Positions 2,570 through 54,307 of a DNA stretch of 64,000 bases are shown here, piece after piece; the stretch's first letter is position 1, and each line of letters opens with the position of its first letter. The notes under the pieces were generated by a model, which saw only the letters and a list, made by a program, of their open reading frames with translations, did not search any database and was not told the origin of the DNA. Both the position numbers and the translations under genes were made by a program. The stretch is taken from positions 1-64,000 of the forward strand of contig JBLNCY010000064.1 of NCBI GenBank assembly GCA_050261115.1, given 5' to 3'. The DNA is from Methanocella sp. (lineage in GTDB: Archaea > Thermoproteota > Bathyarchaeia > Bathyarchaeales > Bathycorpusculaceae).

Positions 2570-2609
2570 GTCTGTTGCTCTCACAGAGACCCCCTCCCTT
2601 ATATATAGA
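2570..2609 (+). repeat. Dispersed intergenic repeat, copy A
   Basis: GTCTGTTGCTCTCACAGAGACCCCCTCCCTTATATATAGA. Matches 35255-35291 (+) and 54267-54307 (-). Confidence 0.75.
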
Positions 2610-2846
2610 CCCAGCAACTGCAGCGGAGGATTGCGGTGGATATGAGTGTTTGCTGGCTTTTGGCGCTGGATGCTGTGTAGCTGCAGGATGGGCTGAATGG
2701 GTGGCTGCACAACTATTTTCAGATAGAAATCGCACTCACTATCAAGGGTCTGTATTCTGCGGGCGAACCTCCATAAAGGAGGCGACCTCTGGGGGAAAGA
2801 CCCAAAGCAAGCTCCCCAGACTAAAATAGGCCAGGCGTTCGATAGA

Positions 2847-3659
2847 TTACTTTTTACAGCATTTAAACAGGTATACAACCAAAAGCGCCAACAAAACAGC
2901 AACAACACCTAGCGTGACAAGCATGGCAATCTGCATCCAATCTAAACCCAACTGGGCCACCATTTGGGAACCAGATTGACCTGGCGAAGTTATTGGGCTT
3001 TGGCTCTCAGAGGGTGACACACTCGGAGGGGGGAAAGACGCATCGGGGTTAACTGCAGGTGTGCTCTCATCGATTGTTATTGTTTGAGTATTGCTCCAAT
3101 CACTTGCTTCGCCTTCCCAATAGAAATCATATGTTGGACCACCTGGAACTCCTCCCGGGTGTACGTAAGGCACTGCTCTAAAATCGCCAAATAACGCTTG
3201 AACTTGAATATCTAGCTTCCCGTTCACAGGAATATACGGTAGGAAATACAACGATACTACGGTATGGCTTGAAGTTGAGGCATGAAAAGGAACCGCATGC
3301 GCATCTGGAAGAAAATAGCCAAGTTCATTATTAGGATAAAAGGGATAATAATTCCATTCATCCTCATAGTGGCCTTTGTACCTGAAATTGTAGTATGATG
3401 CTCCATTATTGGTGATATAAGCATCTATAGTTTTATTTTCAACATGATATCCTGGAATAGTAGTGTCGATCATTTCGCCTGTATAGGGGTCCGTTGAAGA
3501 AGAGGGCTTTGGTGGCACATCATACGAGTGGTCTATATAGCTCAATGTAAATTCTGGCACAGACGGTTTAGACGACGCAGAACCACCTACAACTTGAACC
3601 ATTATTAAGCTCGAACTGATCAAAGCAAAAACAAGAAGAAACACTGAGCACTTGCTCAT
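2847..3659 (-). CDS. Secreted, membrane-anchored surface protein (KPSVPEFT family)
   Basis: Signal peptide, KPSVPEFT…YDVPP…DPYTG…GYHV.NKTI, S/P-rich linker and C-terminal TM. Paralog of 28346-29278. Confidence 0.8.
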   Translation of the reverse strand: MSKCSVFLLVFALISSSLIMVQVVGGSASSKPSVPEFTLSYIDHSYDVPPKPSSSTDPYTGEMIDTTIPGYHVENKTIDAYITNNGASYYNFRYKGHYEDEWNYYPFYPNNELGYFLPDAHAVPFHASTSSHTVVSLYFLPYIPVNGKLDIQVQALFGDFRAVPYVHPGGVPGGPTYDFYWEGEASDWSNTQTITIDESTPAVNPDASFPPPSVSPSESQSPITSPGQSGSQMVAQLGLDWMQIAMLVTLGVVAVLLALLVVYLFKCCKK

Positions 3660-3908
3660 ACTATTCCCTACTAGGCACGTTGTGGCGACTGTGTTATTAA
3701 GTTAACTTGTGCAGTTGACCAAAGGTGACTAAAGTTAATGCTATAGTCAGCTTGGTTACTTGGTTTGCAGATATGCTTTTTAATCGCCGCTACAAATTTA
3801 GCTGAACATATCAGGGGAGACTACAGGCAAAAAGGCTGTTGTTGCTACAAAAGCCATTAATAGACTTAATCAATTCAGCCTCAGAAAAACCAATTGGACG
3901 ATGATGCC

Positions 3909-5045
3909 ATGACCGAAAATCACGAAAAAACAGTTGTACGCGGACTTAAGGGTATAGCCGCGGCGGAAACCCGTATCAGCTATGTAGACTACAACGGTAA
4001 ACTATACTATGTGGGTTATGACATCGACGATTTGGTTGGTCGGGTTATTTATGCAGAGGTCGCATACTTGCTTCTTCATAGGCGCCTTCCAACCAAGCAA
4101 GAACTGGAGACTTTTAAGGCAGAACTCGTTTCAGCAATGCACCTGCCCCAACCTGTAATCGACAGCATCAAAAATTCTCCCAAAAACAGTCATCCAATGG
4201 ATGTCTTACGGACAGAGGTCTCTCACCTTGCCGAGTATGATCCTGACGGCAACACTTTCTCTGAAGCCGCAAACTATAGGCGCGCCACACGCTTGATAGC
4301 GCAGGTGCCCGTAATAGTAGCCACTCTCTATCGGAGCCGAATTGGCAAGTCAGTTCCCGAGCCAAAACAAGAATTCGGCTTTGCGGAAAACTTTCTCTAC
4401 ATGTTCAAAGGGGAAATTCCAGATAAAGCCGAAACCAACGTGCTGCACCGCTACATGACCCTTCATGCTGACCACGGCTTTAACGCTTCAACCTTTGCCG
4501 CACGAGTAACCGCAAGCACAAACTCAGATATGTACTCGGCCATAACGGCGGCTATTGGAACCCTCAAAGGACCCTTACATGGCGGCGCCAGCGAGAAAGT
4601 AATGGACATGCTGGACGACATTAACCTAGAAGCGGAAGTCGAAGAGTACATTCATGGCTTGCTAGATGATCAGAAGAAGGTCATGGGTTTTGGTCACAGA
4701 ATATACAGGGCCCAGGATCCAAGGACTAAGCATTTGAGAGGTATGGTTGAAGACCTCTGCCACCAAAACAAGAAAACCCTCGATCTCTACAATAAGTGTG
4801 TAAAGATAGAGCAGATTGTTTTTGGGCGGAAAAAGATTTACCCCAACGTCGATTTTTACGCTGCAGTCACCATGGATGCACTTGGTGTGCCTAAAGAGTT
4901 CTTCACGCCGTTTTTTGCTTCCAGCAGAATATCGGGTTGGGTTGCGCATGTAATTGAGCAATATGAGGATGCTGTATTGCTGCGTCCAGACTCGAAGTAT
5001 GTCGGCGAATTCGGCAGACCCTTTGTACCAATCGAAAGCCGATAA
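3909..5045 (+). CDS. gltA: Citrate synthase (Si-type; citrate/2-methylcitrate synthase family)
   Basis: DHGFNASTF, GPLHGGA, GFGHRIY and PNVDFY motifs. Confidence 0.93.
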   Translation: MTENHEKTVVRGLKGIAAAETRISYVDYNGKLYYVGYDIDDLVGRVIYAEVAYLLLHRRLPTKQELETFKAELVSAMHLPQPVIDSIKNSPKNSHPMDVLRTEVSHLAEYDPDGNTFSEAANYRRATRLIAQVPVIVATLYRSRIGKSVPEPKQEFGFAENFLYMFKGEIPDKAETNVLHRYMTLHADHGFNASTFAARVTASTNSDMYSAITAAIGTLKGPLHGGASEKVMDMLDDINLEAEVEEYIHGLLDDQKKVMGFGHRIYRAQDPRTKHLRGMVEDLCHQNKKTLDLYNKCVKIEQIVFGRKKIYPNVDFYAAVTMDALGVPKEFFTPFFASSRISGWVAHVIEQYEDAVLLRPDSKYVGEFGRPFVPIESR

Positions 5046-5170
5046 CTGCCCCCAAGGTGGGGTGGGCTCAGCAAAGGGCTGTATCCCTTTTCCTTTCTGA
5101 GCTATCCCTAGAAATTGCGTTATAAAGTGCTCTAAACCTTTTAAGCCAAACCTCCGATTCATACATACAT

Positions 5171-5614
5171 ATGAAACTAGTCTCTGCTTGCCTGCTTGGA
5201 ATTAACTGCAACTTTGAAGGGAAAAACAAACTTCAACCCCAACTCCTTGAAGAATTCAAAAAAGGCGAGCTCTACCCCATATGTCCCGAAGTCCTAGGCG
5301 GCCTCTCCATACCCCGCATACCCGCCGAGATACAAGGCGGCGACGGCCTAGACGTAATTGAAGGCAAAGCCTACGTAGTAAACATGCAGGGTATCGATGT
5401 TACGGATGAATTTATGAAGGGGGCCTACGAGGTGCTGCGGATTGCTGAGGTAATTGATGCGAAGGAGGCTTTGTTGGTTGAGAGGAGTCCTTCTTGTGGC
5501 TGCGGCGAAATTTTTGATGGTACTTTCACAGGGAAGCTTAAGTCTGGCGACGGTGTGACTGCTGCGTTGCTTAAGAAAAAGGGAATAAAAGTCACATGCA
5601 TTAAAGCACCGTAA
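5171..5614 (+). CDS. DUF523 / 2-thiouracil desulfurase family protein
   Basis: VSACLLG, PICPEVLGGL, SPSCG and GDGVTAALL motifs. Confidence 0.9.
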   Translation: MKLVSACLLGINCNFEGKNKLQPQLLEEFKKGELYPICPEVLGGLSIPRIPAEIQGGDGLDVIEGKAYVVNMQGIDVTDEFMKGAYEVLRIAEVIDAKEALLVERSPSCGCGEIFDGTFTGKLKSGDGVTAALLKKKGIKVTCIKAP

Positions 5615-5623
5615 AACGAGGGT

Positions 5624-6034
5624 TTACCAGTTTTTTAGGACTATCATGGTGTTTGTTTTCATGATGCCTTCGACGCGGCGTATTTTTTCGATGCATTCGT
5701 TGACTTCTGTGACGTTCATGCCGCTTATTACTGCGACGATGTCGTATTCGCCTGTGACTTCGTAGAGTGTTTCTACGTTGGGGATTTCTCGGATTCGTTT
5801 GGATACTTCTAGGGTGGGGTAGGTGGGGTTGGTGGCTAGGAGTGTGATGGCTTGGGCTCCTTCGGCGGTTGAGACTTTGATTGTGAATTTGCGGATGACG
5901 CCTTCGTCGGTTAGTGTTTTTATTCGTTTGCGTACGGCGCCTTCTGAGAGGTTGATTTGGTTGCCGATGTCTGCGTATGCTGCTCGGGAGTCTTCTTTTA
6001 GGATTTTTATGATTTGTTTGTCTTTTTCGTCCAT
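5624..6034 (-). CDS. lysM: Lrp/AsnC transcriptional regulator, LysM-type
   Basis: HTH (LSEGAVRKRI) plus RAM domain (EVTGEYD). Divergent from lysW. Confidence 0.8.
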   Translation of the reverse strand: MDEKDKQIIKILKEDSRAAYADIGNQINLSEGAVRKRIKTLTDEGVIRKFTIKVSTAEGAQAITLLATNPTYPTLEVSKRIREIPNVETLYEVTGEYDIVAVISGMNVTEVNECIEKIRRVEGIMKTNTMIVLKNW

Positions 6035-6281
6035 TTGGGTGTCCAGTGTGAGTATGGCTTGGAAAAATTTAACGTTTTCCGTACTTGCTTTTATGGGGTT
6101 GGTGCGGTTTACGCTTTATGCGTGTCTTAGCGGTGCGTTTTAGGTATCACAAAAGCGCTTTTTATCGTGTCCTAAATGGTACATTAGAAACTCAAGTTGT
6201 AACAAATACGTCACAATGTTTAAAAGGTACACGAAAATAACAGAATGCATTTCCAATCAAAAAATAAAGTGAACCAAAAAA

Positions 6282-6494
6282 ATGATCAAGCAAGCAAACC
6301 AACCCGAAGAGATGAAACTCATCACGGCAAAGTGCCCAGATTGTGACGCTGACCTCGACGTACCAGCAGACACAGAGAAGGGAGAAATCCTAAGTTGCCC
6401 AGGCTGCGGACTCGAACTCGAAGTCAAACAGATCAAAGGCGGCTGCGTTGACCTTCAAGAATTAACCATTGAAGGCGAAGACTGGGGCGAATAA
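6282..6494 (+). CDS. lysW: Amino-group carrier protein LysW
   Basis: CPDC…CPGC zinc ribbon and C-terminal EDWGE. Confidence 0.95.
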   Translation: MIKQANQPEEMKLITAKCPDCDADLDVPADTEKGEILSCPGCGLELEVKQIKGGCVDLQELTIEGEDWGE

Positions 6495-6557
6495 GCAGTA
6501 TCCACCTTGCCATCTTCTTTATTTAAACCACCCTTTTAAAGAAAGCAACTGCGGACG

Positions 6558-7751
6558 ATGACAGCGATGAGCATTGCACTCCTATACGAGCGCTCGGAGA
6601 ACGACGAAAACGGCATCAAATTAACTGCGCAACAACTGGGCATAGAGTTAGCGTTTATTCCATTCCGAAAAATCGCTCTCTCTATAGGCAAAGACGGCTT
6701 CACAGCCAAAACCAAAGGCAAAGATTACACCCAAACATTCAATGACACCAAAGTAGTGCTCAACCGTGCCCAAAGCAAAAACCGCCGTCTCCAAGCCAGC
6801 TACATCCTAGAAGGGCTGGGTAAAAAAGCCATAAACTCATCGCAAATCGAATTCGTCTGCTACAGCAAACTTCGCACCCTACTTAATCTACACAAAGCAG
6901 GCATACCAATCCCCAAAACCGTGTTTGTTCCCTGCGATGCCACAGACGTCATGAAGAACGGTCGAGAAATCCACAACGAAAAAGACATCGCCGACCTCTT
7001 TGAACAAGAACTAACCCTAAAAGACGGCATTGTCATAAAAGCCGATGCGGGAACACATGGAAAAATGATAATGCTAAGCAAAAACCGCGCCGTACTAGAA
7101 GCCAACATAAAAGAGACCAAACCAAACATCATTAACCCCATCGGGGTCGTCGCACAACAACTTATCGAGAAATGGTTCTATGACCTGCGTATAATCGTGC
7201 ACAAAGAAGCCGGCAAAGAACCAGTCTGTCACCCGACCGCGATGGTGCGGGCCGGCTATAAGGATTTCCGCACAAACACCTTCCTTGGAAACCTAGTCTT
7301 CCACTCCAAACTTCCCCAACGCATCCAGGAGTTGGCGGTAAAATGTGGAAAAACCTTAGGCGAAGGCAGCAACGCATACATTTTCGCGCTCGACGCCATG
7401 GTGGATGTTGCTGATAACAAGAACGCAGATGAAGCGTTCCTAAAAGAGCAGCTTGACAAGGCGGCACAGTCTTGGAGTGGTGTGCAGAAGGTTAAGGCTG
7501 ATGAAATACGCCTAACAGATTTCCCGGCCTGGAACCAGAAGCTAGAGGCTGCTTTCCAAACCTACAAGGAAACATCAGCCTACCAAAACATCACCCATAT
7601 AATTGAAGAGAGTGTAGAAGAGAACAAGAGCGCCCTAGTATTTCATGAGTCGAATTCTTGCCCCGAATTCTGGGAGAACACCCGACTCGCAACCGGATTA
7701 AACGTGGCCGTGCCATTGCTCAAAAGCGCTCAAAGCCTAATCGACCAATAA
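6558..7751 (+). CDS. lysX: LysX/ArgX-type ATP-grasp ligase with large insertion
   Basis: Sits between lysW and lysY. SKLRT…GIPIPKT, DLRI, FRTN and ESNSCPEF motifs. Confidence 0.82.
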   Translation: MTAMSIALLYERSENDENGIKLTAQQLGIELAFIPFRKIALSIGKDGFTAKTKGKDYTQTFNDTKVVLNRAQSKNRRLQASYILEGLGKKAINSSQIEFVCYSKLRTLLNLHKAGIPIPKTVFVPCDATDVMKNGREIHNEKDIADLFEQELTLKDGIVIKADAGTHGKMIMLSKNRAVLEANIKETKPNIINPIGVVAQQLIEKWFYDLRIIVHKEAGKEPVCHPTAMVRAGYKDFRTNTFLGNLVFHSKLPQRIQELAVKCGKTLGEGSNAYIFALDAMVDVADNKNADEAFLKEQLDKAAQSWSGVQKVKADEIRLTDFPAWNQKLEAAFQTYKETSAYQNITHIIEESVEENKSALVFHESNSCPEFWENTRLATGLNVAVPLLKSAQSLIDQ

Positions 7752-7775
7752 CAAAAGAGGGAGAGAAGAGAAAAA

Positions 7776-8834
7776 ATGACAACAAAAATTGGAATAATCG
7801 GCGGTTCAGGATACGTGGGCGGCGAACTCTTACGCCTGCTTCTGTTGCACCCTGAAGCAGAGGTAACCATGGTTACTTCACGTCAAAGCGCAGGCGAATT
7901 CATCTTTAACGTCCACCCCAACCTACGCGGGTTAACACAACTAAAATTCGTACCCCAAGACATGGAAGCGCTCAAGCAGAACTGCGAGGTAGTCTTCACA
8001 GCCACCCCACATGGCGGCTCACAAACCCTCGTCCCCAAACTGCTAGATGCAGGGCTAAAAGTTATCGATATGAGCGCGGACTTTCGCCTCAAAAACCCCG
8101 TGGACTATGAAACTTACTATGAGTTTAAGCATGCGCATCCAGAAATGCTAAAAGAAGCCGTCTACGGATTGCCCGAACTGCATCGGGAAGAAATCAAAAC
8201 CGCTAAACTCGTCGCTTGTCCCGGCTGCATGGCTACCTCGGCTATTTTGGGCTTAGCGCCAATCATCAAAGCAGGCCTAGTTGATCCCCAAAAAATAGTG
8301 GTGGACCTTAAAGTCGGCAGCTCCGGCGGAGGCAGCAAACCCAATCTTGCCAGTCACCACCCCGAACGCTTCAGCGGCGTTCGACCCTACCAAGTCGTCG
8401 GCCACCGACACACAGCAGAAGTTGAACAAGAACTAACCGCCCTCTCAGACCAAACTGTAAAAATTGGTTTCACACCCCACGCCGTCAACATGGTCCGCGG
8501 CATACTTGCAACCATCCACACTTACCCCAAGCAGAAGGTCGAAAACAAGGACCTCTGGCGTGCGCTCCGTGGCATGTATGGTTCTGAACCGTTTGTGCGC
8601 TTAGTCAAGTACCAGAAAGGCCCCTACCAGTTGCCTGACCCCAAGACCACCATGGGCACCAACTTCTGTGATGTGGGCTTTGAGATTGATGAGCACACGA
8701 ATCGTCTCATAATGTTTAGCGCCATTGATAACATGACTAAAGGCGCCGCAGGCCAAGGTGTGCAGTGCATGAATTTGATGTTGGGCTTAGAGGAGACCAC
8801 AGGCCTTAAGAGCACTGGGTTCCATCCGGTGTGA
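7776..8834 (+). CDS. lysY: [LysW]-aminoadipate/glutamate phosphate reductase (LysY/ArgC)
   Basis: GGSGYVG, DMSADFRL, ACPGC and DNMTKGAAGQ motifs. Confidence 0.93.
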   Translation: MTTKIGIIGGSGYVGGELLRLLLLHPEAEVTMVTSRQSAGEFIFNVHPNLRGLTQLKFVPQDMEALKQNCEVVFTATPHGGSQTLVPKLLDAGLKVIDMSADFRLKNPVDYETYYEFKHAHPEMLKEAVYGLPELHREEIKTAKLVACPGCMATSAILGLAPIIKAGLVDPQKIVVDLKVGSSGGGSKPNLASHHPERFSGVRPYQVVGHRHTAEVEQELTALSDQTVKIGFTPHAVNMVRGILATIHTYPKQKVENKDLWRALRGMYGSEPFVRLVKYQKGPYQLPDPKTTMGTNFCDVGFEIDEHTNRLIMFSAIDNMTKGAAGQGVQCMNLMLGLEETTGLKSTGFHPV

Positions 8835-8839
8835 TAGCC

Positions 8840-9649
8840 ATGTTGCTTGTAATCAAGATGGGCGGTAGCATCCTAAAAGAAGGCGCCTCAAGCGACCTTG
8901 TTAGCGACCTAAAAGAAATCGCAAAACAACACCAAGTTGTTCTGGTTCACGGCGGCGGCGCAGAAGTTACCGAAATCGCCTCCAAACTGGGCAAAGAACA
9001 GAAATTCATCATATCACCTGAGGGTTTCCGCAGCCGCTACACCGACAAAGAAACCATCGAAATCTATACCATGGTCATGGCGGGCAAAATGAATAAGCAA
9101 ATCGTCTTAGCCCTCGCAGCGCAGGGCATCCCCGCTGTTGGACTAAGCGGCTTAGACGCAGCGCTCCTTAAAGCCGAACGCAAAACCCGCCTAATTGCGG
9201 TTGATGAGCGGGGACGCAAAAAAGTCATTGACGGCGGCTACACTGGGAAAATTACCCAAGTGAACGTGGACTTGCTAAAGCTGCTGCTCGAAAAGGGCTA
9301 CCTGCCGATTGTGACTCCCATCGCATTAAGCCAGGACGCTGAGCCGCTCAACGTGGATGGCGATCGAACTGCAGCTATCGTTGCAGGTGCACTTAAAGCC
9401 GACAAACTCATCCTGCTCACTGACGTTGAAGGCTTAATCCTAAAAGGCGAACGTGTCCCCAAGATTGCAGCCACCGAAGTCAAAGAAGTTCTCTCCAAAA
9501 TAGGCGGCGGCATGAGCACCAAAGTCCATGCTGGCCTTGAAGCGCTTAACCAAGGCGTAGGCGAAATATTGGTCACTTCCGGAGTTGCCAAGCAGCCCAT
9601 TACTTCAGCGCTTAACCATCAAGTCGGAACTGTGATTACAAGTGAATGA
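8840..9649 (+). CDS. lysZ: [LysW]-aminoadipate/glutamate kinase (LysZ/ArgB)
   Basis: VIKMGGS, VHGGG, SRYTD, NVDGD and GGGM motifs. Alternative GTG start at 8831. Confidence 0.93.
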   Translation: MLLVIKMGGSILKEGASSDLVSDLKEIAKQHQVVLVHGGGAEVTEIASKLGKEQKFIISPEGFRSRYTDKETIEIYTMVMAGKMNKQIVLALAAQGIPAVGLSGLDAALLKAERKTRLIAVDERGRKKVIDGGYTGKITQVNVDLLKLLLEKGYLPIVTPIALSQDAEPLNVDGDRTAAIVAGALKADKLILLTDVEGLILKGERVPKIAATEVKEVLSKIGGGMSTKVHAGLEALNQGVGEILVTSGVAKQPITSALNHQVGTVITSE

Positions 9650-10856
9650 AAAAGAAATCATGGACATCGAAAACCGTTATTTAGCTAACGTGTTTTCCAA
9701 AAAACCCGTTGTGTTAACCCACGGCAAAGGCGCGCTCCTGTGGGATATTAACGGGAAGGAGTACGTTGACTGTGCAAGCAGCTACGGCGTCGCCGCGTTG
9801 GGACACTGTCACCCCAAGATTGTGGAAGCCGTCAAAGCCCAAGCAGAGGAACTCATAACCTGCCACAGCTGCTACTACAACGACAAACGCGCCGAATTCA
9901 TCCAGAAACTCGTCTCCATCACGCCTAAAGGCTTGGATAAGGCTTTTCTGTCAAACAGCGGCGCCGAATCAGTCGAATGCGCCATTAAACTTGCCCGCAA
10001 AGCCACCGGCAAAACCGAAATCATCGGCGTCATGGGCGCCTACCACGGCAAAACCATGGGTGCCCTCTCCCTGACGTGGGACAAGAAATACCGTGAACCC
10101 TTCCAGCCCCTTATCCCCGACATGAAACATGTCCCGCCGGACAACCCCGACAAGCTCCGTGAAGCCATCGGCGAAAAAACCGCGGCAGTCATCATGGAAC
10201 CCATTCGAGGCGAAGGCGGCATACGCGTTCCACTCGAAGGCTACATACAGGAAGTTCGCGAAATATGCGATCAACACGGCATACTTCTCATCTTTGACGA
10301 GGTGCAAACGAGTTTTGGACGCACAGGTAAGAACTTTGGTTGCCAAAACTGGGACGTTACGCCCGATGTTATGTGCCTCTCAAAACCCTTTGCAGGCGGC
10401 TTACCCATCGGCATTACGGTTGCCCGCGAGGACCTTATGTCAGCGTTTAAAATGGGCGAGCACACAACCACCTACAGCGGAAGCCCCCTAGTTATGGCGG
10501 CTGGTATAGCTGCAATCGATGCCCTAGTCGAGGAGAAACTTGCTGACAAAGCCGCCTCCAACGGTAAATACTTTAAAGCCCAACTTGAAGAACTCCAAGC
10601 CAAGCATAAAATCGTTAAAGACGTGCGTGGTTTAGGCTTAATGTTGGGCATGGAGCTACGCTATGACGTATATGGCGTACTGCTGAAAGCTCTCAACAGA
10701 GGCACCCTGGTTATCGATGCGGGTCGAACCGTTGTCCGCATGCTGCCCCCGCTGGTTATATCTAAACCCCAAATCGATCGAGTCATAACTGCCCTCGATG
10801 AGGCGCTAGGAGAAGAAGAGAATGAGCGAGGAGCAAGCAGTCCGGTTTCTAACTAA
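9642..10856 (+). CDS. lysJ: [LysW]-semialdehyde aminotransferase (LysJ/ArgD)
   Basis: NSGAES, YHGKT, DEVQT and LSK(PLP) motifs of class-III aminotransferases. Confidence 0.92.
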   Translation: MNEKEIMDIENRYLANVFSKKPVVLTHGKGALLWDINGKEYVDCASSYGVAALGHCHPKIVEAVKAQAEELITCHSCYYNDKRAEFIQKLVSITPKGLDKAFLSNSGAESVECAIKLARKATGKTEIIGVMGAYHGKTMGALSLTWDKKYREPFQPLIPDMKHVPPDNPDKLREAIGEKTAAVIMEPIRGEGGIRVPLEGYIQEVREICDQHGILLIFDEVQTSFGRTGKNFGCQNWDVTPDVMCLSKPFAGGLPIGITVAREDLMSAFKMGEHTTTYSGSPLVMAAGIAAIDALVEEKLADKAASNGKYFKAQLEELQAKHKIVKDVRGLGLMLGMELRYDVYGVLLKALNRGTLVIDAGRTVVRMLPPLVISKPQIDRVITALDEALGEEENERGASSPVSN

Positions 10857-16819: not shown

Positions 16820-18325
16820 ATGATGCCTAATAACTCCGTCATTATTATCGGCGCTGGATTGGCAGGTCTATCCACTGGCTGCTATGCCCAAATGAACGGT
16901 TACAATACTCAAATCTTTGAGATGCAAAACAAGCCCGGCGGGGTCTGCGTCTCGTGGAAGCGAGGCGACTACAATTTTGATTACGCTGTACACAACATTT
17001 TTGGCGTCTCAACTAAGCCTACTGGTTCTTTATACAATCGTTTGTGGGATGAGCTTGGAGCGCTAAGAAACACAAGCGTTTATGGTTTTAACGAGTTTGT
17101 CCAAGTGGAAGCAGACGGGAAAGCCTTAACTGTTTACTCTGACCCTGAAAAACTCGAGAAACACCTAAAAGGACTCTCGCCCACAGATGCCGCGGTAATA
17201 GATGAATTTGTTCGCGCTGTTAAGAAATTCAGGGGTCATGATGTCTTTTCTGCCTTATTTGGTGGGGCAGGCGCTAAACTAAAGATGTTGCCTCTTATGG
17301 GTACATTGATGAAGTATGCAAAAACACCGTTAAAGGAGTTCAGCCAAAAGTTCGCTGATCCCTTCCTCCAAAAAGCGTTCCCAACAATCCAATATGACAT
17401 ACAGGAGGTGCCTGTATTTATCCCAATTATTTTTCTATCCATGCTGAGCGTTGGGGATGCTGGGTGGCCAATCGGTGGTTCTGCAGCGTTGTCTAAAAAC
17501 ATCGAAAACAGCTACCTATCACTGGGCGGTAAAGTTCACTACAAATCAAGAGTCAAGAAAATCATTGTTAAGGAGGACGTCGCTAAGGGTGTGCAACTTG
17601 AAGATGACTCAGAGCATTTTGCCGATTTAGTGGTTTCTGCTGCCGATGGATACTCAACGATTTTCGGCATGCTTGATGGGAAATATACGACTCCATTAAT
17701 CGACGCCTATTACAAGTCATACCCCAAAACGCAATCGTTCGGGCTGGAGGTTTGGTATGGTGTTAAGCGGGATTTTGTTAATGAACCGCATGCTATGGTT
17801 CTATTCTTAGACAAACCTCTCAATGTAGAAGACACGCCCCGCGATAAGCTTGATATCGAAATCCTAAACTTTGACCCAACCCTTGCCCCCCAAGGAAAAA
17901 CGGTTATAAAAGTAAACTTCGACTCAAACTATGATTACTGGAAAAACCTCTCACAAAACACCGCTGCCTACAAACAACAAAAACGCCAAATCGCCGACGA
18001 AGTTGCAGAAAGACTGGACAAACGCTTCCCCAAATTTAAGAGCCAAATAGAATCTGTTGATGTAGTGACACCCGTCTCTGTTGAGCACTGGACTGGGGGC
18101 TTTAGGGGTTTTGCACAGCCATGGCCAGCCCCCTCAGATTTAGCCAAGGACATAAACAAAACTGGCGTCAGCAAAACTTTGCCTGGTCTTAAGAACTTCT
18201 ATATGGTTGGACAATGGTCAGGTGGCACCTTTGGTATAAGCACCGTCTGCATGATGGGAAAGGGTCTTGTTAGGGATATCTGTAAAGCCGATGGCAAGAA
18301 ATTTCAAATAAAACCTATCCCATAG
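16820..18325 (+). CDS. NAD(P)/FAD-dependent oxidoreductase, phytoene desaturase family
   Basis: IIGAGLAGL…E.Q.KPGG, WPIGGS, APQGK and LPGLKNFYMVGQW motifs. Confidence 0.85.
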   Translation: MMPNNSVIIIGAGLAGLSTGCYAQMNGYNTQIFEMQNKPGGVCVSWKRGDYNFDYAVHNIFGVSTKPTGSLYNRLWDELGALRNTSVYGFNEFVQVEADGKALTVYSDPEKLEKHLKGLSPTDAAVIDEFVRAVKKFRGHDVFSALFGGAGAKLKMLPLMGTLMKYAKTPLKEFSQKFADPFLQKAFPTIQYDIQEVPVFIPIIFLSMLSVGDAGWPIGGSAALSKNIENSYLSLGGKVHYKSRVKKIIVKEDVAKGVQLEDDSEHFADLVVSAADGYSTIFGMLDGKYTTPLIDAYYKSYPKTQSFGLEVWYGVKRDFVNEPHAMVLFLDKPLNVEDTPRDKLDIEILNFDPTLAPQGKTVIKVNFDSNYDYWKNLSQNTAAYKQQKRQIADEVAERLDKRFPKFKSQIESVDVVTPVSVEHWTGGFRGFAQPWPAPSDLAKDINKTGVSKTLPGLKNFYMVGQWSGGTFGISTVCMMGKGLVRDICKADGKKFQIKPIP

Positions 18326-20273: not shown

Positions 20274-20348
20274 GCTCCGGTAGTATAGTCCGGTCAAGTA
20301 TGCCGGCCTCTCGAGTCGGCGACCCGGGTCCAAATCCCGGCCGGAGCA
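20274..20348 (+). tRNA. tRNA-Glu (anticodon CTC), intronless, CCA not encoded
   Basis: Acceptor stem GCTCCGG/CCGGAGC, anticodon arm CCGGC-CT-CTC-GA-GTCGG, T arm CCGGG-TCCAAAT-CCCGG. Upstream TATTTAT box. Confidence 0.93.
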
Positions 20349-20456
20349 CTAAATACTCTTCTTGGATGCAAAAAGCCGTTTTTTTAGTTTGGCAAATATG
20401 TTTGTATCAGTGTAGTTCTCGCAAGCAGGCAATAGGCAGGAAAATGTAGAGAAAGG

Positions 20457-21818: not shown

Positions 21819-21821
21819 AAC

Positions 21822-33264: not shown

Positions 33265-33682
33265 ACTTAGAAAAATCAGGAAATTCCGAGGCTCAAGGAC
33301 ACAGGGTTATGGACGTATCGGACAGCACCGTGATACAGGTAGCAAAGGCAACCGTAAAGTCGGCCGCCACAAGCACCTCTGGAGCAAAGTCGTTACCCAA
33401 AACCCTAGCTATTTTGGCAAACACGGATTCACTTCGCCGCAAAGCAAGCATCGCGTTGAATCCACCATTAACTTGCTAAAGCTAGATCAGATAGCTACCG
33501 GCGCAGAAGTCGACCTTACTGAACTCGGCTACACTAAACTACTCGGTACAGGCAAAATCACCAAGAAACTTACTGTAAAAGTCGCTGCAGCCTCCAAATC
33601 CGCTATAGCCAAAATCGAAGCAGCCGGCGGGAAACTCTTACTCCAAGAAGCCGAAGCAGAAGCAGAAGCCTCCGAGGAGTAA
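33254..33682 (+). CDS. rpl15: 50S ribosomal protein uL15
   Basis: RGSRTQGYGRIGQHR…G.G.HKH…YFGKHGF…KLLGTG…KIEAAGG. Confidence 0.95.
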   Translation: MPHKLRKIRKFRGSRTQGYGRIGQHRDTGSKGNRKVGRHKHLWSKVVTQNPSYFGKHGFTSPQSKHRVESTINLLKLDQIATGAEVDLTELGYTKLLGTGKITKKLTVKVAAASKSAIAKIEAAGGKLLLQEAEAEAEASEE

Positions 33683-33690
33683 AACCTTAA

Positions 33691-35100
33691 ATGGCCGGCA
33701 GATTCCTCACTCTATTCAAACCAATCGGTAGAATTCTTCCGGAAATCAAAAAGCCCGGACGCAAAGTTTCTTTTAATGAAAAAATCTTTTGGACAGCGCT
33801 TGTCCTAGTTGTCTTTCTTGTCATGACCGAGGTTCCGCTCTATGGTGTCAGCCAGGAAGCCGCTGACAGCTTTGGATCGCTTCGTGTCATCTTTGCCTCA
33901 AACAAAGGCTCGCTTATGGAGCTCGGTATCGGCCCCATCGTCACTGCTGGCCTGATTTTGCAGCTTCTCGCTGGTTCCGGTATCATTAAATGCGACTTAT
34001 CTAACCCCGAAGATAGAGGACTCTTTACCTCTGCAAGCAAAGTCTTCAGCATCCTATTAACAGCAGTCCAAGCAGGCGCCTACATCCTTAGCGGCATGTA
34101 TGGTGATATTGCGCAGCTTGGTATAGGGGTAATTTTGGCGATATTCTTCCAGCTTATAGCCGCAGGCATCATCGTTATGTTGATGGATGAACTTGTGCAG
34201 AAGGGCTGGGGCCTTGGTAGCGGCATCAGTCTCTTTATCATGGCTGGGGTTGCTCAGACCATCATATGGTCCGCCTTTAACCCCCAGACAGGACTCTTCG
34301 TCGGTGCCTTATCAACCTATTTAGGCGGCGGCTTGAGCACCTTCCAGTGGATATTTGGAACCGCGAGCGGTGTCTACCCAACCCTGATTGGTCTAATAGC
34401 CACAGTGGTTGTGTTCCTAGTGGTTATCTACTTGCAGGGTGTCCGCGTTGAGCTACCCATGAGCTACGCAGGCTACAAGGGTTTCCGCAGCCGATACCCC
34501 ATCAAGCTGCTCTACGTCAGCAACCTGCCAGTCATCTTTGCAAGCGCACTGTTTGCCAACGTGTACTTCTTCAGCCAACTACTCTGGAGCCAACTTGGAC
34601 GACCTGAACCTGGAACAAACCTATTCTTCCAGATCATCGGCGACTATAACTCGACCACTACCACCTCTGCCAGCGGCGTCACGAGCACCAGTGCATACCC
34701 AGTGGGCGGCTTAGCTTACTTTGTGACGGCACCAAATAGTCTGCAGGTTGTGGCGGCTGATCCGCTTCGCGCGGCGGCATACTTAGGTATACTCATAGCG
34801 TTCTGTGCCGTGTTCAGCTTGATCTGGCTTGAAGTCGGCGGATTAGGCCCCGCAAAGGTTGCTAAGCAACTAATGGACAGCGGCATGGAAATCCCCGGTT
34901 ATAGACGCAGCGAGAAACCCATCGAAGCCATCCTGCGCAGATACATCCCAGTCGTAACAGTGCTGGGCGGTATCATCGTCGGCTTAGTCGCAGGGCTATC
35001 GGACTTCTTTGGTGCCTTCGGCAGCGGCACCGGTATACTGCTCAGCGTGGGCATAATATACCATTACTACGAGCTACTGATGCGTGTGCGCGCGGCATAA
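33691..35100 (+). CDS. secY: Preprotein translocase SecY (Sec61-alpha); in-frame tail continues to 35136 past a TAA
   Basis: LMELGIGPIVTAG, GLGSGISLFI, YPIKLLYVSNLPVIF, IPGYR and GSGTGILL motifs. Confidence 0.95.
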   Translation: MAGRFLTLFKPIGRILPEIKKPGRKVSFNEKIFWTALVLVVFLVMTEVPLYGVSQEAADSFGSLRVIFASNKGSLMELGIGPIVTAGLILQLLAGSGIIKCDLSNPEDRGLFTSASKVFSILLTAVQAGAYILSGMYGDIAQLGIGVILAIFFQLIAAGIIVMLMDELVQKGWGLGSGISLFIMAGVAQTIIWSAFNPQTGLFVGALSTYLGGGLSTFQWIFGTASGVYPTLIGLIATVVVFLVVIYLQGVRVELPMSYAGYKGFRSRYPIKLLYVSNLPVIFASALFANVYFFSQLLWSQLGRPEPGTNLFFQIIGDYNSTTTTSASGVTSTSAYPVGGLAYFVTAPNSLQVVAADPLRAAAYLGILIAFCAVFSLIWLEVGGLGPAKVAKQLMDSGMEIPGYRRSEKPIEAILRRYIPVVTVLGGIIVGLVAGLSDFFGAFGSGTGILLSVGIIYHYYELLMRVRAA

Positions 35101-35254
35101 ATGTTCCCGGCGTTTAGAAGAATCCTAGGCGAATAAGCCTAAAACGCCACCTTTCCTTTTCTTTGTTTTTATCTTGTATTTTTCCTACCTTTTTTGATGC
35201 TGTGCGGGTAGAGTTTGGCTGTATTCAGGGGTTGTAGAACTTATGGCAATGTAT

Positions 35255-35291
35255 TGTTGCTCTAACACTTGACCCCTTCCTTATATATAGA
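35255..35291 (+). repeat. Dispersed intergenic repeat, copy B
   Basis: TGTTGCTCTAACACTTGACCCCTTCCTTATATATAGA, 30/37 ungapped identity to 2573-2609. Confidence 0.72.
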
Positions 35292-35511
35292 ATGAACTAT
35301 TGCTTCAACCTGTAGTTGGAGAAAACTATGGGTCGCCCCTAAAGCACAGTGTAATCTGACCTTGTACGGTAGTTGAAGTATCAGCGGCAAAAGTTACTTT
35401 AGCTTTACAAACTTGTGAGTGCAAAAACTTTTTTAGCGGTGAATTAACGTGTGAGTATCTGTTTGGGGCGTTATGTCCATGCTTATATCGTGCTGTTTTC
35501 TATAGTTCATT

Positions 35512-49718: not shown

Positions 49719-50573
49719 ATGCCATCCCAACAAGTATTAGAGGAAAAGTCAAGCGAAGTCCAAGCAATCAAAGAGATCCTAAAAGAATACAAGTCCGTCG
49801 GCATCGCCAGTTTACAGAAGGTTCGCGCATCACAACTGCAAGAACTCAAGAAATCAATGAAAGGCCAAGTTTACCTCCGTGTCCTAAAAAACACACTAGT
49901 AAAGCTCGCCATTGAAGAACTCAACCAAGAACAACTCAAAAAGCTTGAGGAATACTTGGAAGGATCAAACGTTTTCCTCTTCACAGACCTAAACCCCTTC
50001 AAGCTAGCCCTTATGCTAGAGAAGGGCAAAGTCAAAACCTTCGCTAAAGCAAACGACATCGCAGCAGAAGACATAGTTGTACCCTCAAGCAACACTGGTC
50101 AACCACCTGGGCCAGTCATCAGCCAACTAAACGCCGTCGGCTTACCTACACGAATCGAAAATGGCAGCGTTTGGGTCAGCAAAGACACCCTTGTCGTGCG
50201 TAAAGGAGAACCCATCAACGACCGATTAGCCGGTGTCCTCTCAAAGCTGGGCATTAAATCCGTTGAACTCGGCCTATCTATGCGTGCCGTCTATGATAAC
50301 GGTATGATGATCAACGGCGACCAACTAAAAGTGGATGTAGCAGCAACCAAACGCAGTGTCGAAGTAAGCAACCAAGAAGCATTCGCTTTGGCACTCGAAA
50401 TCGGCTATGCAACCAAAGAGACAATCCAGCCACTACTACAACGCGCTCACCAGAAGGCAGTTTCGCTATCACTCGGCGCAGCTATTCCAACCAAAGACAC
50501 CATCGCTGACTTGATCCGCAAAGCCAACGCAGAAGCCACCAGCTTAGAATCAAAAACCAAAAAGGCTGCATAA
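49719..50573 (+). CDS. rpl10: 50S ribosomal protein uL10 (aP0), no acidic C-terminal tail
   Basis: KNTL, FLFTDLNPFKL, NTGQPPGP and LSKLGI motifs. Confidence 0.95.
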   Translation: MPSQQVLEEKSSEVQAIKEILKEYKSVGIASLQKVRASQLQELKKSMKGQVYLRVLKNTLVKLAIEELNQEQLKKLEEYLEGSNVFLFTDLNPFKLALMLEKGKVKTFAKANDIAAEDIVVPSSNTGQPPGPVISQLNAVGLPTRIENGSVWVSKDTLVVRKGEPINDRLAGVLSKLGIKSVELGLSMRAVYDNGMMINGDQLKVDVAATKRSVEVSNQEAFALALEIGYATKETIQPLLQRAHQKAVSLSLGAAIPTKDTIADLIRKANAEATSLESKTKKAA

Positions 50574-50677
50574 ACAGCCCTCCCTAATTCTTTCGTTATC
50601 ATTTATTAATTATTTTATAGCGCATTCGACCTATTGGTTAGGCTATTTTCTGTTTGAATTCAAGAAACGGTGGCTGA

Positions 50678-51013
50678 TTAGTCGTGGTGGTCGCTATGCC
50701 CGTGCCCATGCCCATCATTATGCGTATGTCTGTGTCCACTTCGGTATGTTGCTCGCCATGCTCTGCCAATAACTGCCGATATTATTGCAACCACCAAAAA
50801 CGTCACTGCCGTTAGAAACAGATCTCCACCGCCGCTAAGCCCGCCAGTCAAAACCCATACTAATAGCGCCGCTAGCGCTGCGATGGGGAATGCGAAGAGG
50901 AAACCCAGGACTACGATGATAATTAAGGCTATGATGACTAAGATGATAAGAATCCAGAGTAGTGACATAAAATCGGTGGGAATGACAATCTGTAGAGCCG
51001 TTAAATTTAACAA
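50678..51013 (-). CDS. Small membrane protein with His-rich C-terminal tail
   Basis: GAGGTGA RBS; three hydrophobic segments; tail HRHTHNDGHGHGHSDHHD. Confidence 0.75.
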   Translation of the reverse strand: MLNLTALQIVIPTDFMSLLWILIILVIIALIIIVVLGFLFAFPIAALAALLVWVLTGGLSGGGDLFLTAVTFLVVAIISAVIGRAWRATYRSGHRHTHNDGHGHGHSDHHD

Positions 51014-51099
51014 AAATTCACCTCTAAGGTTACTGGGTAAACATCGGTATTTATTGATTTGTTACGCGCAGGCAGTGCCCACAAAAAGGGCTACTGGAA

Positions 51100-51558
51100 C
51101 TATTTTTCTAGGCGGCGCCGATAGCATTCATAGTCAGGCAACCTCCGGGAGTAATCCTCGTCCATGAGCTTTGAAGAGATCAGAAAGTCAGCTGAGGAGC
51201 GGTTCATCGCTATGGGGATATTCCAGACCACCGCTACACGAAGCAAAGCTTTAACGTCGGGGTCATGCGGTAAGGGCTCAAGGGGATCCCAGAAGAAAAT
51301 TAAAAAGTCAATGTCGCCGTCAGCGATGCGGGCGCCAACCTGCATGTCACCGCCCAATGGACCCGACTCCAGAATGTTTATGGGCAACTCGCATTCTTTC
51401 TCAAGAATCATACCCGTTGTTCCCGTAGCGTAGAGTGTATGCTTTCTTAGGGTGTCTGCGTTGAATTTTGTCCACTGCAGCATATCCTCTTTTTTGTTAT
51501 CATGCGCGATGAGGGCTATTCTTTTTTTGGGTTTTAGGAGTGCGGTTTTAATAGTCAT
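51100..51558 (-). CDS. mgsA: Methylglyoxal synthase
   Basis: ALIAHDNKK, ATGTTG, SGPLGGD and FFWDPL..PHDPDV motifs. Confidence 0.94.
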   Translation of the reverse strand: MTIKTALLKPKKRIALIAHDNKKEDMLQWTKFNADTLRKHTLYATGTTGMILEKECELPINILESGPLGGDMQVGARIADGDIDFLIFFWDPLEPLPHDPDVKALLRVAVVWNIPIAMNRSSADFLISSKLMDEDYSRRLPDYECYRRRLEK

Positions 51559-51774
51559 GCAGTTCCCTGTCTAGCCGTCGTTTTGTGCGCTTAATAATGT
51601 TGTGTTGTGGCGCAGTCCACGCGTTTTGGGGTTTGGGAATAAAGGTTAATGGGAAAATCCCCCATATGGACCCTCTTGCGCGGCGGCGACCCATAACTTG
51701 CTGCAGTTTTATATCCCTTTAACTCTAAGGTACCTAATGACAAATTCTAAACTGCAACTCTCCACAAAAGTGGT

Positions 51775-51960
51775 CTAGAGGTGCTCCCTGCTCCTGCGTA
51801 CTCGGCGCAGGTAAAGATCCTCTTTGGTATCAGGCTTATGCAGGATTCCCGCTTTAGTGTAGGCTGTGGTTGTATGGTCTTTAGGCTCTACTTCCACATC
51901 CTCTGAGACAGTCTCGTTTTGCTCAACTCTATGCCGTTTATCACGGGGATCAACCAACAA
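51775..51960 (-). CDS. Small hypothetical protein
   Basis: GGAGGTGA RBS before TTG 51960; about 61 aa. Confidence 0.5.
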   Translation of the reverse strand: MLVDPRDKRHRVEQNETVSEDVEVEPKDHTTTAYTKAGILHKPDTKEDLYLRRVRRSREHL

Positions 51961-52228
51961 ATTCACCTCCAAACTATTATTCCTGTTTGGATTGCGTCAC
52001 CTATGCCAGAAGAGGAAAAACTTGACTTTAAGATGATGTGGGCTTGAAGCTGCTGTAACAAAATGAAAGGCAAGAATTGAAAAGTTGTTTAGACTATTTT
52101 TAAGTCAGGGCATAAGCATGTTGCTGTGTTATTGTTTTATTTTTTTCCGCTCGTTAGCAGCAAAATCCGCCGTTAGATAACAATTGAAGTGTAAAAGTGT
52201 TTGAGAATTAAAGACTAAGCAGGTGCTT

Positions 52229-52708
52229 TTACGTCAGCTTCTTTGTCATTACGTAGGCGTCTTCGCCGTCGCTGTAATACCCATTAATGGTTCGGGTTAT
52301 CTCAAACCCCAACTTCTTATACAGCGAAATCGCCGCGTCATTAGTCACCCTGACCTCGAGGAAGCCCTGTTTGGCTTTGTAATACTCCATGCCTTGAATT
52401 GCGCGGTTAATTATTGCTTGGGCGACGCCTTTTCTTCGATGTTGGGGCATAACTGCGATTGATACTATGTGGCCTTTTCTAACTAGGCCTCCGAAGCCAT
52501 AGTTTGACAAACCCACTTCGATTCGGCACATAATGTAGCCGATGATTTTTCCTGCTTCTTCGGCGACAATGAATGTTTCAGGGAACCTTTGGTGGAGGTC
52601 TACAAAGAAGAAGTCTGTGTAGTTTTCGGGTAGGCAGACGCGGTTAATCTGCATGACTGCTTGTAGGTCTTCTGGGACGAATTTGCGTAGAGTGAAGGTT
52701 TGCTGCAT
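52229..52708 (-). CDS. rimI: N-terminal acetyltransferase (Ard1/RimI GNAT)
   Basis: CLPENY, GHIVSIAV…RRKGVA, LEVRVTN and YYSDGEDAY motifs. Confidence 0.92.
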   Translation of the reverse strand: MQQTFTLRKFVPEDLQAVMQINRVCLPENYTDFFFVDLHQRFPETFIVAEEAGKIIGYIMCRIEVGLSNYGFGGLVRKGHIVSIAVMPQHRRKGVAQAIINRAIQGMEYYKAKQGFLEVRVTNDAAISLYKKLGFEITRTINGYYSDGEDAYVMTKKLT

Positions 52709-52801
52709 CTTTTCGCCTTGTCTTAGAGGATTTATCTGTTTAGACTTAAAGGTTACGCTTTGCGTTAAACCTTACCAGCGGATTAGCGCCCTTGCTGCTG
52801 T

Positions 52802-54085
52802 TTAGGCTTTGTTATCGTCTGGCGCCTTGTAGACTGGCAGAATATGATCGCCCTGCGGAAGCGCCCAGACCCTCGCAGCTGAACCCGCAAGCTTAAAAGC
52901 CTCATTTAGAGCGTCGTTGACTGCTCGGGCTGTCTTTAGTTTAAAGATCGTCTGAGCATAAAAGTCCGGCATGGACGAGACTAGTATGACTTGGTGGTTC
53001 TGGAGCGCTTTAAGTAGGTAGAGCGCTTTGTGGCCACCCATGACAAAGTTGCGTCTGACCTCTTTCTCAACGGCTTTCACTTCACCTAGCCGCGTCATCC
53101 AATCATAGAAAACTTGGTTACCATGCCCCTCTATACACTCTGCCACGAGGATAATTACTCCGCCGCGTTTGACAGCGTCTAATGCGTTATCTAAGCCCTT
53201 GTAGGCTTGGTAGAGGTTAATATCAGCTGGGTAGCCGCCTGCACTGACAACCACAATGTCTGCCCGGCGATCGACATAAACACGGTACATTTCGTCAACG
53301 AGTTTAACGCCCTCCATAAAAGCCGTCTCCAAGTCTCCTGCGAAGGCTTTCACGATTTCACCCTTACTGTTCTCAACCACATTAACTATAAAGTCCACTT
53401 TGGCCAATCGGGCGGCCTCAGTCATATCTATGTGGACGGGGTTGTTTTCTAGGTTGCCCGTTCGGGCATTAGCGTTTGTGAGCATGGCGTGATTGTGCTG
53501 TATGCTTTGGGCGCCGCTAACTGCCGGCAGTACACTTTTTCGGCCTCCCCCATAACCGGCATAGTAGTGATAGTTAATGTCTCCCAGCAGTACACGGACA
53601 TCGGCTTCTGCGAAGGCACGGTTGACCATGATTTTGTTACCATAGGTTTTGGTTGTGCCGATGTGGACGAGATCGTTGTCTGTGCAGCAGTGACTAATCA
53701 CCTTTACCCGCTTGAATGCTTCTTCGCCTACGAGTTCGACGGCTTCCTCTGGCTTTACTGCACGATGAGTTCCACAGCCAAAAATTACCGTGATGTTCTC
53801 GTCTTTGACGCCTGCACTGTTTAATTCAGCTAAGGCCGGTAGAAGCATGCGTTCGCTGGGAGCTTTGCGTGTGGCGTCATCGACCACTATCGCGACTCTC
53901 GAGGTGGGTGTGGCGATTTCGGATAGGCGTTTGGTTCCTATCGGTTCTTTGAGTGCCCGTTCAACTTCAGCTTTCTGGTCAGGTGCAGCGGGAACGGGTT
54001 TTGCTTCGATTGTGCCAAGTAGGTTTCGGGCGGGGACTCGGACGCATACCTCTGTTTTTCCATAGGGTAACCAAACGTCAACCAT
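52802..54085 (-). CDS. larA: Nickel-pincer-dependent lactate racemase family protein
   Basis: LPYG, DDATR, GTHR, HYYAGYGGGRKS and NLYQAYK motifs. Confidence 0.9.
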   Translation of the reverse strand: MVDVWLPYGKTEVCVRVPARNLLGTIEAKPVPAAPDQKAEVERALKEPIGTKRLSEIATPTSRVAIVVDDATRKAPSERMLLPALAELNSAGVKDENITVIFGCGTHRAVKPEEAVELVGEEAFKRVKVISHCCTDNDLVHIGTTKTYGNKIMVNRAFAEADVRVLLGDINYHYYAGYGGGRKSVLPAVSGAQSIQHNHAMLTNANARTGNLENNPVHIDMTEAARLAKVDFIVNVVENSKGEIVKAFAGDLETAFMEGVKLVDEMYRVYVDRRADIVVVSAGGYPADINLYQAYKGLDNALDAVKRGGVIILVAECIEGHGNQVFYDWMTRLGEVKAVEKEVRRNFVMGGHKALYLLKALQNHQVILVSSMPDFYAQTIFKLKTARAVNDALNEAFKLAGSAARVWALPQGDHILPVYKAPDDNKA

Positions 54086-54266
54086 GCCGATTCACTGTGT
54101 GGAATTTAGTCGGTGCACGAAACTATTAAGCCTTGTTAAAACCCAACAGTAAAACCACGCATATAGCCGAAAGACAGCAAGACCCACCAAAACAGCACAC
54201 CCGATTCAACCCAAAAATAGGGTTTCGCTGATATACCTTCCAACCACAGTTGAACCCTGGGGTGAC

Positions 54267-54307
54267 TCTATAAATGAGGGAGAGGGTCTATTGTGAGAGC
54301 AACAGAC
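54267..54307 (-). repeat. Dispersed intergenic repeat, copy C (inverted relative to A and B)
   Basis: The + strand reads TCTATAAATGAGGGAGAGGGTCTATTGTGAGAGCAACAGAC, the reverse complement of copy A with 4 mismatches and a 1-nt indel. Confidence 0.78.

Follow-up and report, generated by a model that had tools for sequence, protein, structure and literature searches.

The first 64,000 nucleotides of contig JBLNCY010000064.1 (hereafter the window; contig C64 of a Bathyarchaeia assembly of 2.15 Mb in 66 contigs, 95% complete, from which repeats are possibly missing) carry three copies of a short intergenic repeat, which we call A (2570-2609, + strand), B (35255-35291, + strand) and C (54267-54307, - strand). 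Copy A lies between two open reading frames (ORFs) whose products belong to no Pfam family, copy B between the genes for SecY and a CTP-dependent riboflavin kinase, and copy C between those for a methyltransferase and a LarA-like protein, in gaps of 286, 411 and 353 nt, respectively. As an original prediction made from the letters of the window had stated, the neighbors are unrelated from one locus to the next, the upstream gene is co-oriented with the copy at all three, and A cannot serve as the promoter of a neighbor, since its flanking ORFs are convergent. We propose, with a probability of about 0.5, that A, B, and C are three of ~120 self-contained, promoter-shaped cassettes that have been copied into the intergenic DNA of this archaeon.

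The positions of the three copies held when the sequence was checked. A and C differ by four mismatches and one indel, exactly as predicted, and A and B are indeed similar, with ~31 identities in 37 positions and two 1-nt gaps where 30/37 had been counted. A degenerate 21-nt pattern (up to three mismatches) matched the window at A, B, and C only, against 0.16 matches expected, and none of 100 shuffles gave three matches. A sequence-only model, R1, also matched the three copies, by construction, because all of them sat in its seed (Table 1). A fourth, weak copy had been placed close to the start of the window; it gave neither an R1 match up to E = 10 nor an nhmmer match at E < 1e-3, and by eye it shows just a loose TCT-TGCTCTCA-GAGAC...ACATATAAG similarity. 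The predicted family therefore stands in the window for A, B, and C, and the weak copy was dropped.

A family profile built from 65 seed copies was then run through the whole genome with nhmmer (E < 1e-3) and returned 123 copies dispersed over 40 or more contigs, far beyond the three of the window, so that the suspected unannotated dispersed family is real and large. A TATA box was recognizable in 122 of the copies, of which 70 carry a tail named D1, 34 a tail named D2, and 18 other tails; these class counts are approximate, because the motif rule put a few D2 copies into D1 (a D2 profile finds 36). The part common to the copies, module U, consists of the box TCTGTTGCT, 8-10 variable nucleotides and a C-run such as CCCCCTCCC, and is followed by the TATA octamer TTATATATAG. 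The D1 tail, present in B and C, is 30 nt long and reads AGAGTCAACC-N3-GGTTGAACCTGCACTTGAA, with the palindrome CAACC-N3-GGTT, and its similarity stops ~40 nt past the start of the TATA box. The D2 tail, present in A, opens with ACTCAGCAACCGCAG and goes on for ~125-150 nt of G/T-rich, strongly strand-asymmetric sequence (G+T of 0.66-0.79 at +40..+100). Two further boxes of the original prediction find their place in this anatomy, each in part: the semi-palindromic box is the tail of the D1 module in B and C, while its supposed equivalent in A, CAACTGCAGCGGAG, is the head of the D2 module, and the third box lies within the conserved D2 body in A (2689-2707, + strand) and is merely a partial look-alike in C.

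Table 1 Features of copies A, B, and C and of nearby stretches, in positions of the window.
Feature	Position	Strand	Content	Basis
Proposed weak copy	800..832	-	rejected as family member	R1, nhmmer
Copy A, module U	2570..2598	+	box TCTGTTGCT, 8-10 variable nt, C-run CCCCCTCCC	R1 match 2565-2623, 61.6 bits
Copy A, TATA box	2599..2608	+	TTATATATAG	sequence and family comparison
Copy A, D2 module	2609..2748	+	head ACCCAGCAACTGCAG, then G/T-rich body of ~125 nt	D2 profile, E 2.4e-24
Copy A, predicted start site	~2627-2631	+
Copy B, module U, diverged	35252..35280	+		R1 match 35247-35302, 38.2 bits
Copy B, TATA box	35281..35290	+	TTATATATAG
Copy B, degenerate D1 module	35291..35322	+	AATGAACTATTGCTTCAACCTGTAGTTGGA	nhmmer match 35245-35326, E 3.1e-11
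Copy B, predicted start site	~35309-35313	+
Copy C, module U	54278..54307	-		R1 match 54261-54311, 41.6 bits
Copy C, weakened TATA box	54268..54277	-	TCATTTATAG
Copy C, D1 module	54238..54267	-	AGTCACCCCAGGGTTCAACTGTGGTTGGAA	nhmmer match 54314-54233, E 2.9e-13
Copy C, predicted start site	~54245-54249	-
LarA-like gene's own promoter	54120..54140	-	CAAGGCTTAATAGTTTC / CAAGGCTTAATAG	ordinary promoter, outside the cassette

When U, D1, and D2 were searched with separate profiles, D1 and D2 were found solely beside U, and two U fragments stood alone. Two loci on contig C22 are symmetric, one reading U-TATA-rc(U) and the other rc(D1)-TATA-D1, where rc is the reverse complement (~33636-33721 and ~17440-17520). 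The modules thus recombine around the TATA box, and these two cassettes hint that either flank may sit on both sides of the palindromic TATA, with bidirectional use. The word TGTKKGCTG occurs eight times in the 34 D2 bodies, always on the forward strand and at ~60 times the genome rate; as a set of iterons it was discarded, eight occurrences being too few for three sites per copy.

The conservation profile of the family was computed by column over 70 D1 and 33 D2 copies. Identity is 70-98% in the first box, 40-60% in the variable stretch, 70-88% in the C-run, 80-99% in the TATA octamer, and 60-99% through D1, and it falls sharply to the background of the flanks (30-40%) at ~-40 and ~+42. The TATA-like core named in the original prediction does resemble a promoter. 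Counting gaps as mismatches, the mean pairwise identity is 0.60-0.66 in the core and 0.62 in D1, compared to 0.43 for the D2 body and 0.19-0.24 for the flanks; the closest pairs in this genome reach 0.75-0.93, with none above 0.93. The copies are therefore old, with the promoter-shaped part better preserved than the remainder. Within D1, the core of the palindrome is kept while its 3-nt spacer varies, and the outer positions vary independently (GT/G in 12 copies, GT/C in 12, AC/C in 8, and AC/G in 5, among 42 of the 70 copies parsed). This pattern fits a protein site better than a hairpin, and a hairpin in D1 was rejected, its outer stem positions showing no covariation.

An all-against-all BLAST of the flanks found homology for just one D1 pair (54 shared nt) and one tRNA pair, and no peak of stop triplets, as a stop-codon target would give, was seen before module U in the 66 of 122 copies that could be aligned. 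G/T-rich stretches with G-runs do border some cassettes on both sides (window 54315-54420 and 54140-54237 on the - strand; C12:19425-19480, where the run GGGTTTGGATGGGGGGTTATGGGTTTGGGCGGG could fold as a G-quadruplex); on average the G/T-rich part before U measures only 15-25 nt, in both gene contexts.

On a crude ORF map (2034 ORFs of at least 90 aa, covering 85% of the genome), 110 of the 122 copies lie outside ORFs. The 115 copies with two neighbors are spread over convergent gaps (34), tandem gaps in which they are co-oriented (31) or anti-oriented (26) with the genes, and divergent gaps (24), and 65 of the 121 copies with a downstream neighbor point at the 3' end of a gene on the opposite strand. 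Given such varied orientations, the copies are, as a rule, not the promoters of adjacent genes. Copy C illustrates this: the LarA-like gene has a promoter of its own, ~45 nt ahead of the ATG, which hardly varies between this genome and 10 of 10 relatives examined, so that C, which lies 140 nt farther upstream and is present in this genome only, is not the promoter of that gene. BLAST homology at this locus extends to query position ~1343, and the gene upstream of the LarA-like gene differs in most of the 10 congeners examined.

The same holds for RNA genes. A co-oriented copy precedes only 3 of 41 tRNA genes, at a distance of 187-220 nt, and the tRNA promoters of this genome read AAAGGCTTTAWAT (AAAGGC or AAAGCT before the TATA box); tRNA genes do not use the cassette. 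The window itself holds one tRNA gene, tRNA-Glu (CTC) at 20274-20349 (+ strand), its sole Rfam and ARAGORN match. A tRNA-like sequence that ARAGORN did not call and that may contain an intron (GCCGGGGTGGCGGAGTGGTTATCGCGC..., C6:5444-5560) has a D1-type cassette 70-150 nt upstream, both in this genome and in the relative G069 (L022:661-717). Three CRISPR arrays share a 37-nt repeat ending in ATTGAAAC (C16:30212-31180, C9:8932-10150, and C40:1-1000), and a D1 cassette stands ~200 nt before the C16 array and points at it. That cassette is the only one near any of the three arrays, and the C16 and C9 leaders, both complete, share a different promoter-like stretch, CTTTATAAGGGAAC, so the idea that the cassette is a CRISPR leader was abandoned.

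We then examined how the family is distributed in relatives. A strict pattern with 46 matches in this genome gave 0-3 matches per genome in 40 relatives, 24 of them congeners. With the core model, 31 of 120 congeners were positive and 89 had none; about 10 had 30-46 matches, high counts that are to be read as at least these values (at most 43 candidates were scored per genome). Among GTDB genomes, one per species, the strict pattern matched 39 stretches, 38 of which lie in 12 Bathyarchaeia-type metagenome-assembled genomes (MAGs), and the remaining one, in a relative of Bacillus, was set aside as a chance match. No strict-pattern match was found in the viral contigs of IMG/VR.

In the search for empty sites suggested in the original prediction, no cassette was found at the loci orthologous to the left-hand gene of A (11 relatives) or to the LarA-like gene of C (10 relatives). 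These cassette-free loci include those of the cassette-rich genomes G050, G069, and G075; in G043, a single weak partial match was seen at another place. In G048, both genes flanking C are kept, with a gap of ~85 nt compared to ~290 nt here, and this locus is not a clean empty site because the gaps cannot be aligned. The family therefore behaves as a copied unit, patchy among relatives and at non-orthologous sites.

G069 has a sister family whose upstream box differs, and this family is young: its uncut copies are near-identical over ~250 nt, each being a composite of three promoter-like modules in a row, and at 6 of the 14 loci fetched the contig breaks off within ~30 nt of the TATA box. In these composites (L021-L024, ~180-250 nt after the first TATA), a variant box, TATA, and D2-like body are followed by a second U-TATA and then by a third U-TATA with a D1-like tail. 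The U of the third unit begins at the expected start site of the second promoter, and several contigs end inside the repeat. The D2-like body has another sequence than D2 but the same flavor.

An ordinary archaeal core promoter consists of a B recognition element (BRE), a TATA box, a proximal element and an initiator. The cassettes resemble it in their TATA octamer, in the end of their conservation ~10 nt past the expected start, and in the spacing of 28-32 nt to an ATG in relatives; they differ from it by a C-run in place of the A-rich BRE, by an additional upstream box, and by the lack of a gene behind most copies. The conserved unit, from ~34 nt before to ~40 nt after the start of the TATA box, corresponds to the span of an archaeal pre-initiation complex plus the upstream box. 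TBP and TFB would bind the cassette, and RNA polymerase would begin 28-32 nt to the right of the first T in the TATA box and move rightward. Archaeal repressors commonly bind between the TATA box and the start; because the D1 palindrome lies there, we read it as the putative operator of a dimeric regulator. In the D2 type, the promoter is followed by ~125-150 nt of G/U-rich sequence, which would be read into an unstructured, non-coding RNA. Most copies would then be orphan promoters that yield a short non-coding, a read-in or an antisense transcript, or nothing useful.

The direction of firing can be argued from two relatives, G007 and G024, in which a long ORF follows box, C-run, and TATA directly, with its ATG at +28 in one case (326 aa) and at +32 in the other (406 aa). 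Both products are matched by orthologs here, at 83% and 69% identity, and, judging from their sequences, are presumably an aspartate carbamoyltransferase and a geranylgeranyl reductase. A distance of 28-32 nt from the TATA to the ATG is the spacing of leaderless mRNAs, which argues that the module fires rightward, ~28-32 nt past the first T. In this genome, the ortholog of the reductase is preceded by its own ordinary promoter, and a D2 cassette adjoins that promoter on the upstream side.

Several observations weigh against the reading of the family as promoter cassettes. The TATA box is palindromic, and its direction therefore rests on the two relative loci only; leftward or bidirectional use is allowed by the palindrome and by the symmetric variants. 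The C-run, CCCCCTCCC, occupies the position of the A-rich BRE, so that a purine- or A-rich BRE is not found. No gene-like ORF starts at +22..+48 in the copies of this genome, and in the 12 other MAGs 3 of the 38 cassette loci have an ORF starting at +22..+34, not gene-like; at 25 of the 38, no ORF stays open across the following 200 nt. In 33 of the 70 D1 copies, ORFs read from the TTG of the tail run for a median of 16 codons, compared to 17 in a different frame. No terminator stands at a fixed distance, the first T5 lying at a median of 211 nt compared to 226 nt for an A5 control. The number of TFB genes does not track that of the cassettes either, and a special TFB was discarded as a candidate (4-10 TFIIB-domain counts in cassette-rich congeners vs 2-14 in the others). 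The better conservation of the core could stem from gene conversion and not from selection on each copy, and the cassettes would need a way to spread without the usual transposon marks. Finally, the firing of the cassettes is a prediction from sequence.

RNA data were consulted on this last point. Six metatranscriptome runs contain 36-59% of the words of window positions 1-10000, those from digesters and sludge showing the organism to be active in such places, and assembled contigs of four runs were compared with 20 kb of contig C8, which has two D1 copies and one D2 copy. The depth of RNA contigs at the three cassettes is 0-6 among 32 of the 88 pieces, and assembled contigs cannot show starts. 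Three contigs of different runs end together at the start of a well-covered neighboring gene, ~237 nt from the TATA of a D1 copy, a weak hint that the gene does not depend on the cassette for its transcription. By far the deepest RNA contigs in this 20-kb stretch (depth of 46-86 in two runs) cover the gene at C8:51443-54056 (L007:13443-16056), at whose start contigs of three runs share an end.

The original prediction had offered three readings: a decayed mobile element, a small-RNA gene family with its own promoter, and a chromosome-wide protein-binding site. Of these, an element that has its own promoter and is copied around fits best. The copies could also be functionless, drifting relics of an old burst of a decayed non-autonomous element, similar to miniature inverted-repeat transposable elements (MITEs), in which the TATA is incidental or selfish; being numerous, intergenic, in any orientation, patchy in congeners and at non-orthologous sites, and all diverged here while a young related family exists in G069, they have much of what such relics would show. 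The classical marks of a non-autonomous transposon were nevertheless not found. No terminal inverted repeats were seen by eye when the left end, TCTGTTGCT, was set against the reverse complement of the right end of D1, TTCAAGTGCAGG, a comparison made with no formal scan. Direct repeats in the flanks are no longer than in a permuted control, with 4.17 vs 4.42 nt for D1 (36 of 70 copies) and 4.63 vs 4.75 nt for D2 (16 of 34 copies), duplications of 2-4 nt being beyond the reach of the test. In this 95% complete assembly, Y1_Tnp and RVT_1 have no match, the TnpB domain has two matches below the cut-off, and four tyrosine recombinases lie above it. The one DDE_Tnp_1 gene is single-copy, unlinked to the cassettes and without an exact 14-nt inverted repeat around it, so a link to an insertion sequence was rejected. 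A neutral relic would moreover be expected to decay evenly, yet the TATA columns are 80-99% identical and the mean identity of the D2 body is 0.43. The relic account is thus rather unlikely, and the promoter cassette remains our preferred reading.

The other two readings concern what the copies might do. The D2 type (A and ~35 others) could be a family of small-RNA genes of ~100-130 nt that act by sequence, for instance as a sponge for an RNA-binding protein: its 36 copies share ~125-150 nt after the TATA, stand alone, point in half of the cases at the 3' end of a convergent gene, and have a strand-asymmetric body (G+T up to 0.79) with TGTKKGCTG in the forward direction only and a body of similar flavor in G069. 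However, RNAalifold gave zero consensus pairs across the 36 D2 copies, in both custom and tool-made alignments. On the + strand, copy A has no folding advantage over its shuffled versions (z = 0.33); on the - strand, the shuffles fold better (z = 2.06). A hairpin of the single copy A is paired in 72% of the cells across the family, but 486-499 of 500 column shuffles score equally on every measure; the pairing is therefore a by-product of the conserved sequence, and this candidate hairpin shows no covariation. The Rfam match named beforehand as a refutation did not appear, since the window yields only a tRNA at the gathering score and 20 of the 36 D2 loci gave no match even at E up to 1. None of the 122 copies has a C box (RUGAUGA) in the first 45 nt after +22, no terminator is conserved, and the exact TGTKKGCTG is found in a minority of bodies. 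These results lend no support to a structured small RNA; D2 copies may yield an unstructured transcript, and a D2 RNA acting by its sequence seems to us quite improbable. A DNA-level site for a chromosome-organizing or other protein, which would bind the palindrome and the inverted GTTG...CAAC words, would account for a palindrome kept around a varying spacer, for the symmetric variants and for the many copies that have no downstream gene, and by the tools used here a binding site is indistinguishable from a promoter. We nonetheless regard it as still more doubtful, as the best-kept element is a canonical TATA octamer, the conserved span has the footprint of a promoter, two relatives have the module in front of real genes at the distance typical of leaderless mRNAs, and an absence from 89 of 120 congeners would be odd for a core architectural system. 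The likeness to origin recognition boxes (ORBs) that had been mentioned comes down to a G-run on the reverse strand; with ~120 dispersed copies and no ORB dyad visible by eye, it is not credible.

The nearest printed case of a family of promoter-bearing repeats is viral. The class I intergenic repeats of halovirus HF2 are 56-58 bp long and keep conserved blocks at the TATA and at the start, and all nine cloned repeats acted as promoters in a reporter assay, with the start in the downstream block (Russ, Pfeiffer and Dyall-Smith 2021, PMC8707807). The cassettes are alike in being short (~75 bp) and in having blocks upstream of, around, and downstream of the TATA that reach just past the start. 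They differ in that HF2 has seven copies, each before genes and at positions conserved among related viruses (PMC8707807), whereas ~120 copies of unrelated sequence are found here in a cellular chromosome, mostly without a gene and at non-orthologous sites. The Correia repeat enclosed elements of Neisseria are likewise small, numerous, and intergenic, can supply a promoter and alter the expression of neighbors, but they are bacterial, have inverted repeats, bind IHF and RNase III and carry their promoter at the ends (PMC2649163); in the cassettes, no inverted ends are visible by eye and a whole archaeal-type promoter would occupy the center. A MITE-like element of Pyrobaculum calidifontis with C/D box sRNAs is another small archaeal repeat, with 15 copies, whose product is a non-coding RNA and which has been proposed as a vehicle for the spread of RNA genes; it has conserved flanking inverted repeats and C and D boxes (Lui et al. 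2018, PMC6009581), and here 0 of 122 copies have C/D boxes and no inverted ends are seen by eye. In the literature searched, which covers few subscription journals, we found no paper that reports a family of this kind from a cellular archaeon.

If the family is what we propose, a large set of unannotated repeats in this genome is a promoter-bearing dispersed repeat, and the question arises of how a promoter spreads without the usual marks of a transposon. If the cassettes fire, a fifth or more of the intergenic gaps would hold an orphan promoter, a large source of antisense and read-in transcription that could shape gene expression in archaea that are abundant in sediments and digesters and largely uncultured. 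The ~120 aligned variants, with a C-run in place of the BRE, would also amount to a natural experiment on the requirements of an archaeal promoter. A bolder proposal, and an unlikely one on present evidence, is that the cassettes form a second promoter class in some Bathyarchaeia, in which a C-rich stretch replaces the BRE between an upstream box and a perfect TATA, followed by a palindromic operator. One specialized factor would read this promoter and one dimeric regulator would shut it, which would join 100 or more sites in a single non-coding and antisense switch, including an unstructured G/U-rich RNA of ~100-130 nt from ~36 loci. Such a system would be an archaeal counterpart of the eukaryotic regulatory networks borne by mobile elements.

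Finally, a further tail type was seen in another Bathyarchaeia MAG, where four or five cassettes are followed by a common sequence of ~150 nt, GACTGAATT..TGAATAACTTTGCAA...GGGCACTAGCATGGCCCATTCGG (L093, L098, L100, L107; L105/L005). This third tail, in L093, L098, L100, and L107, might be an RNA gene.

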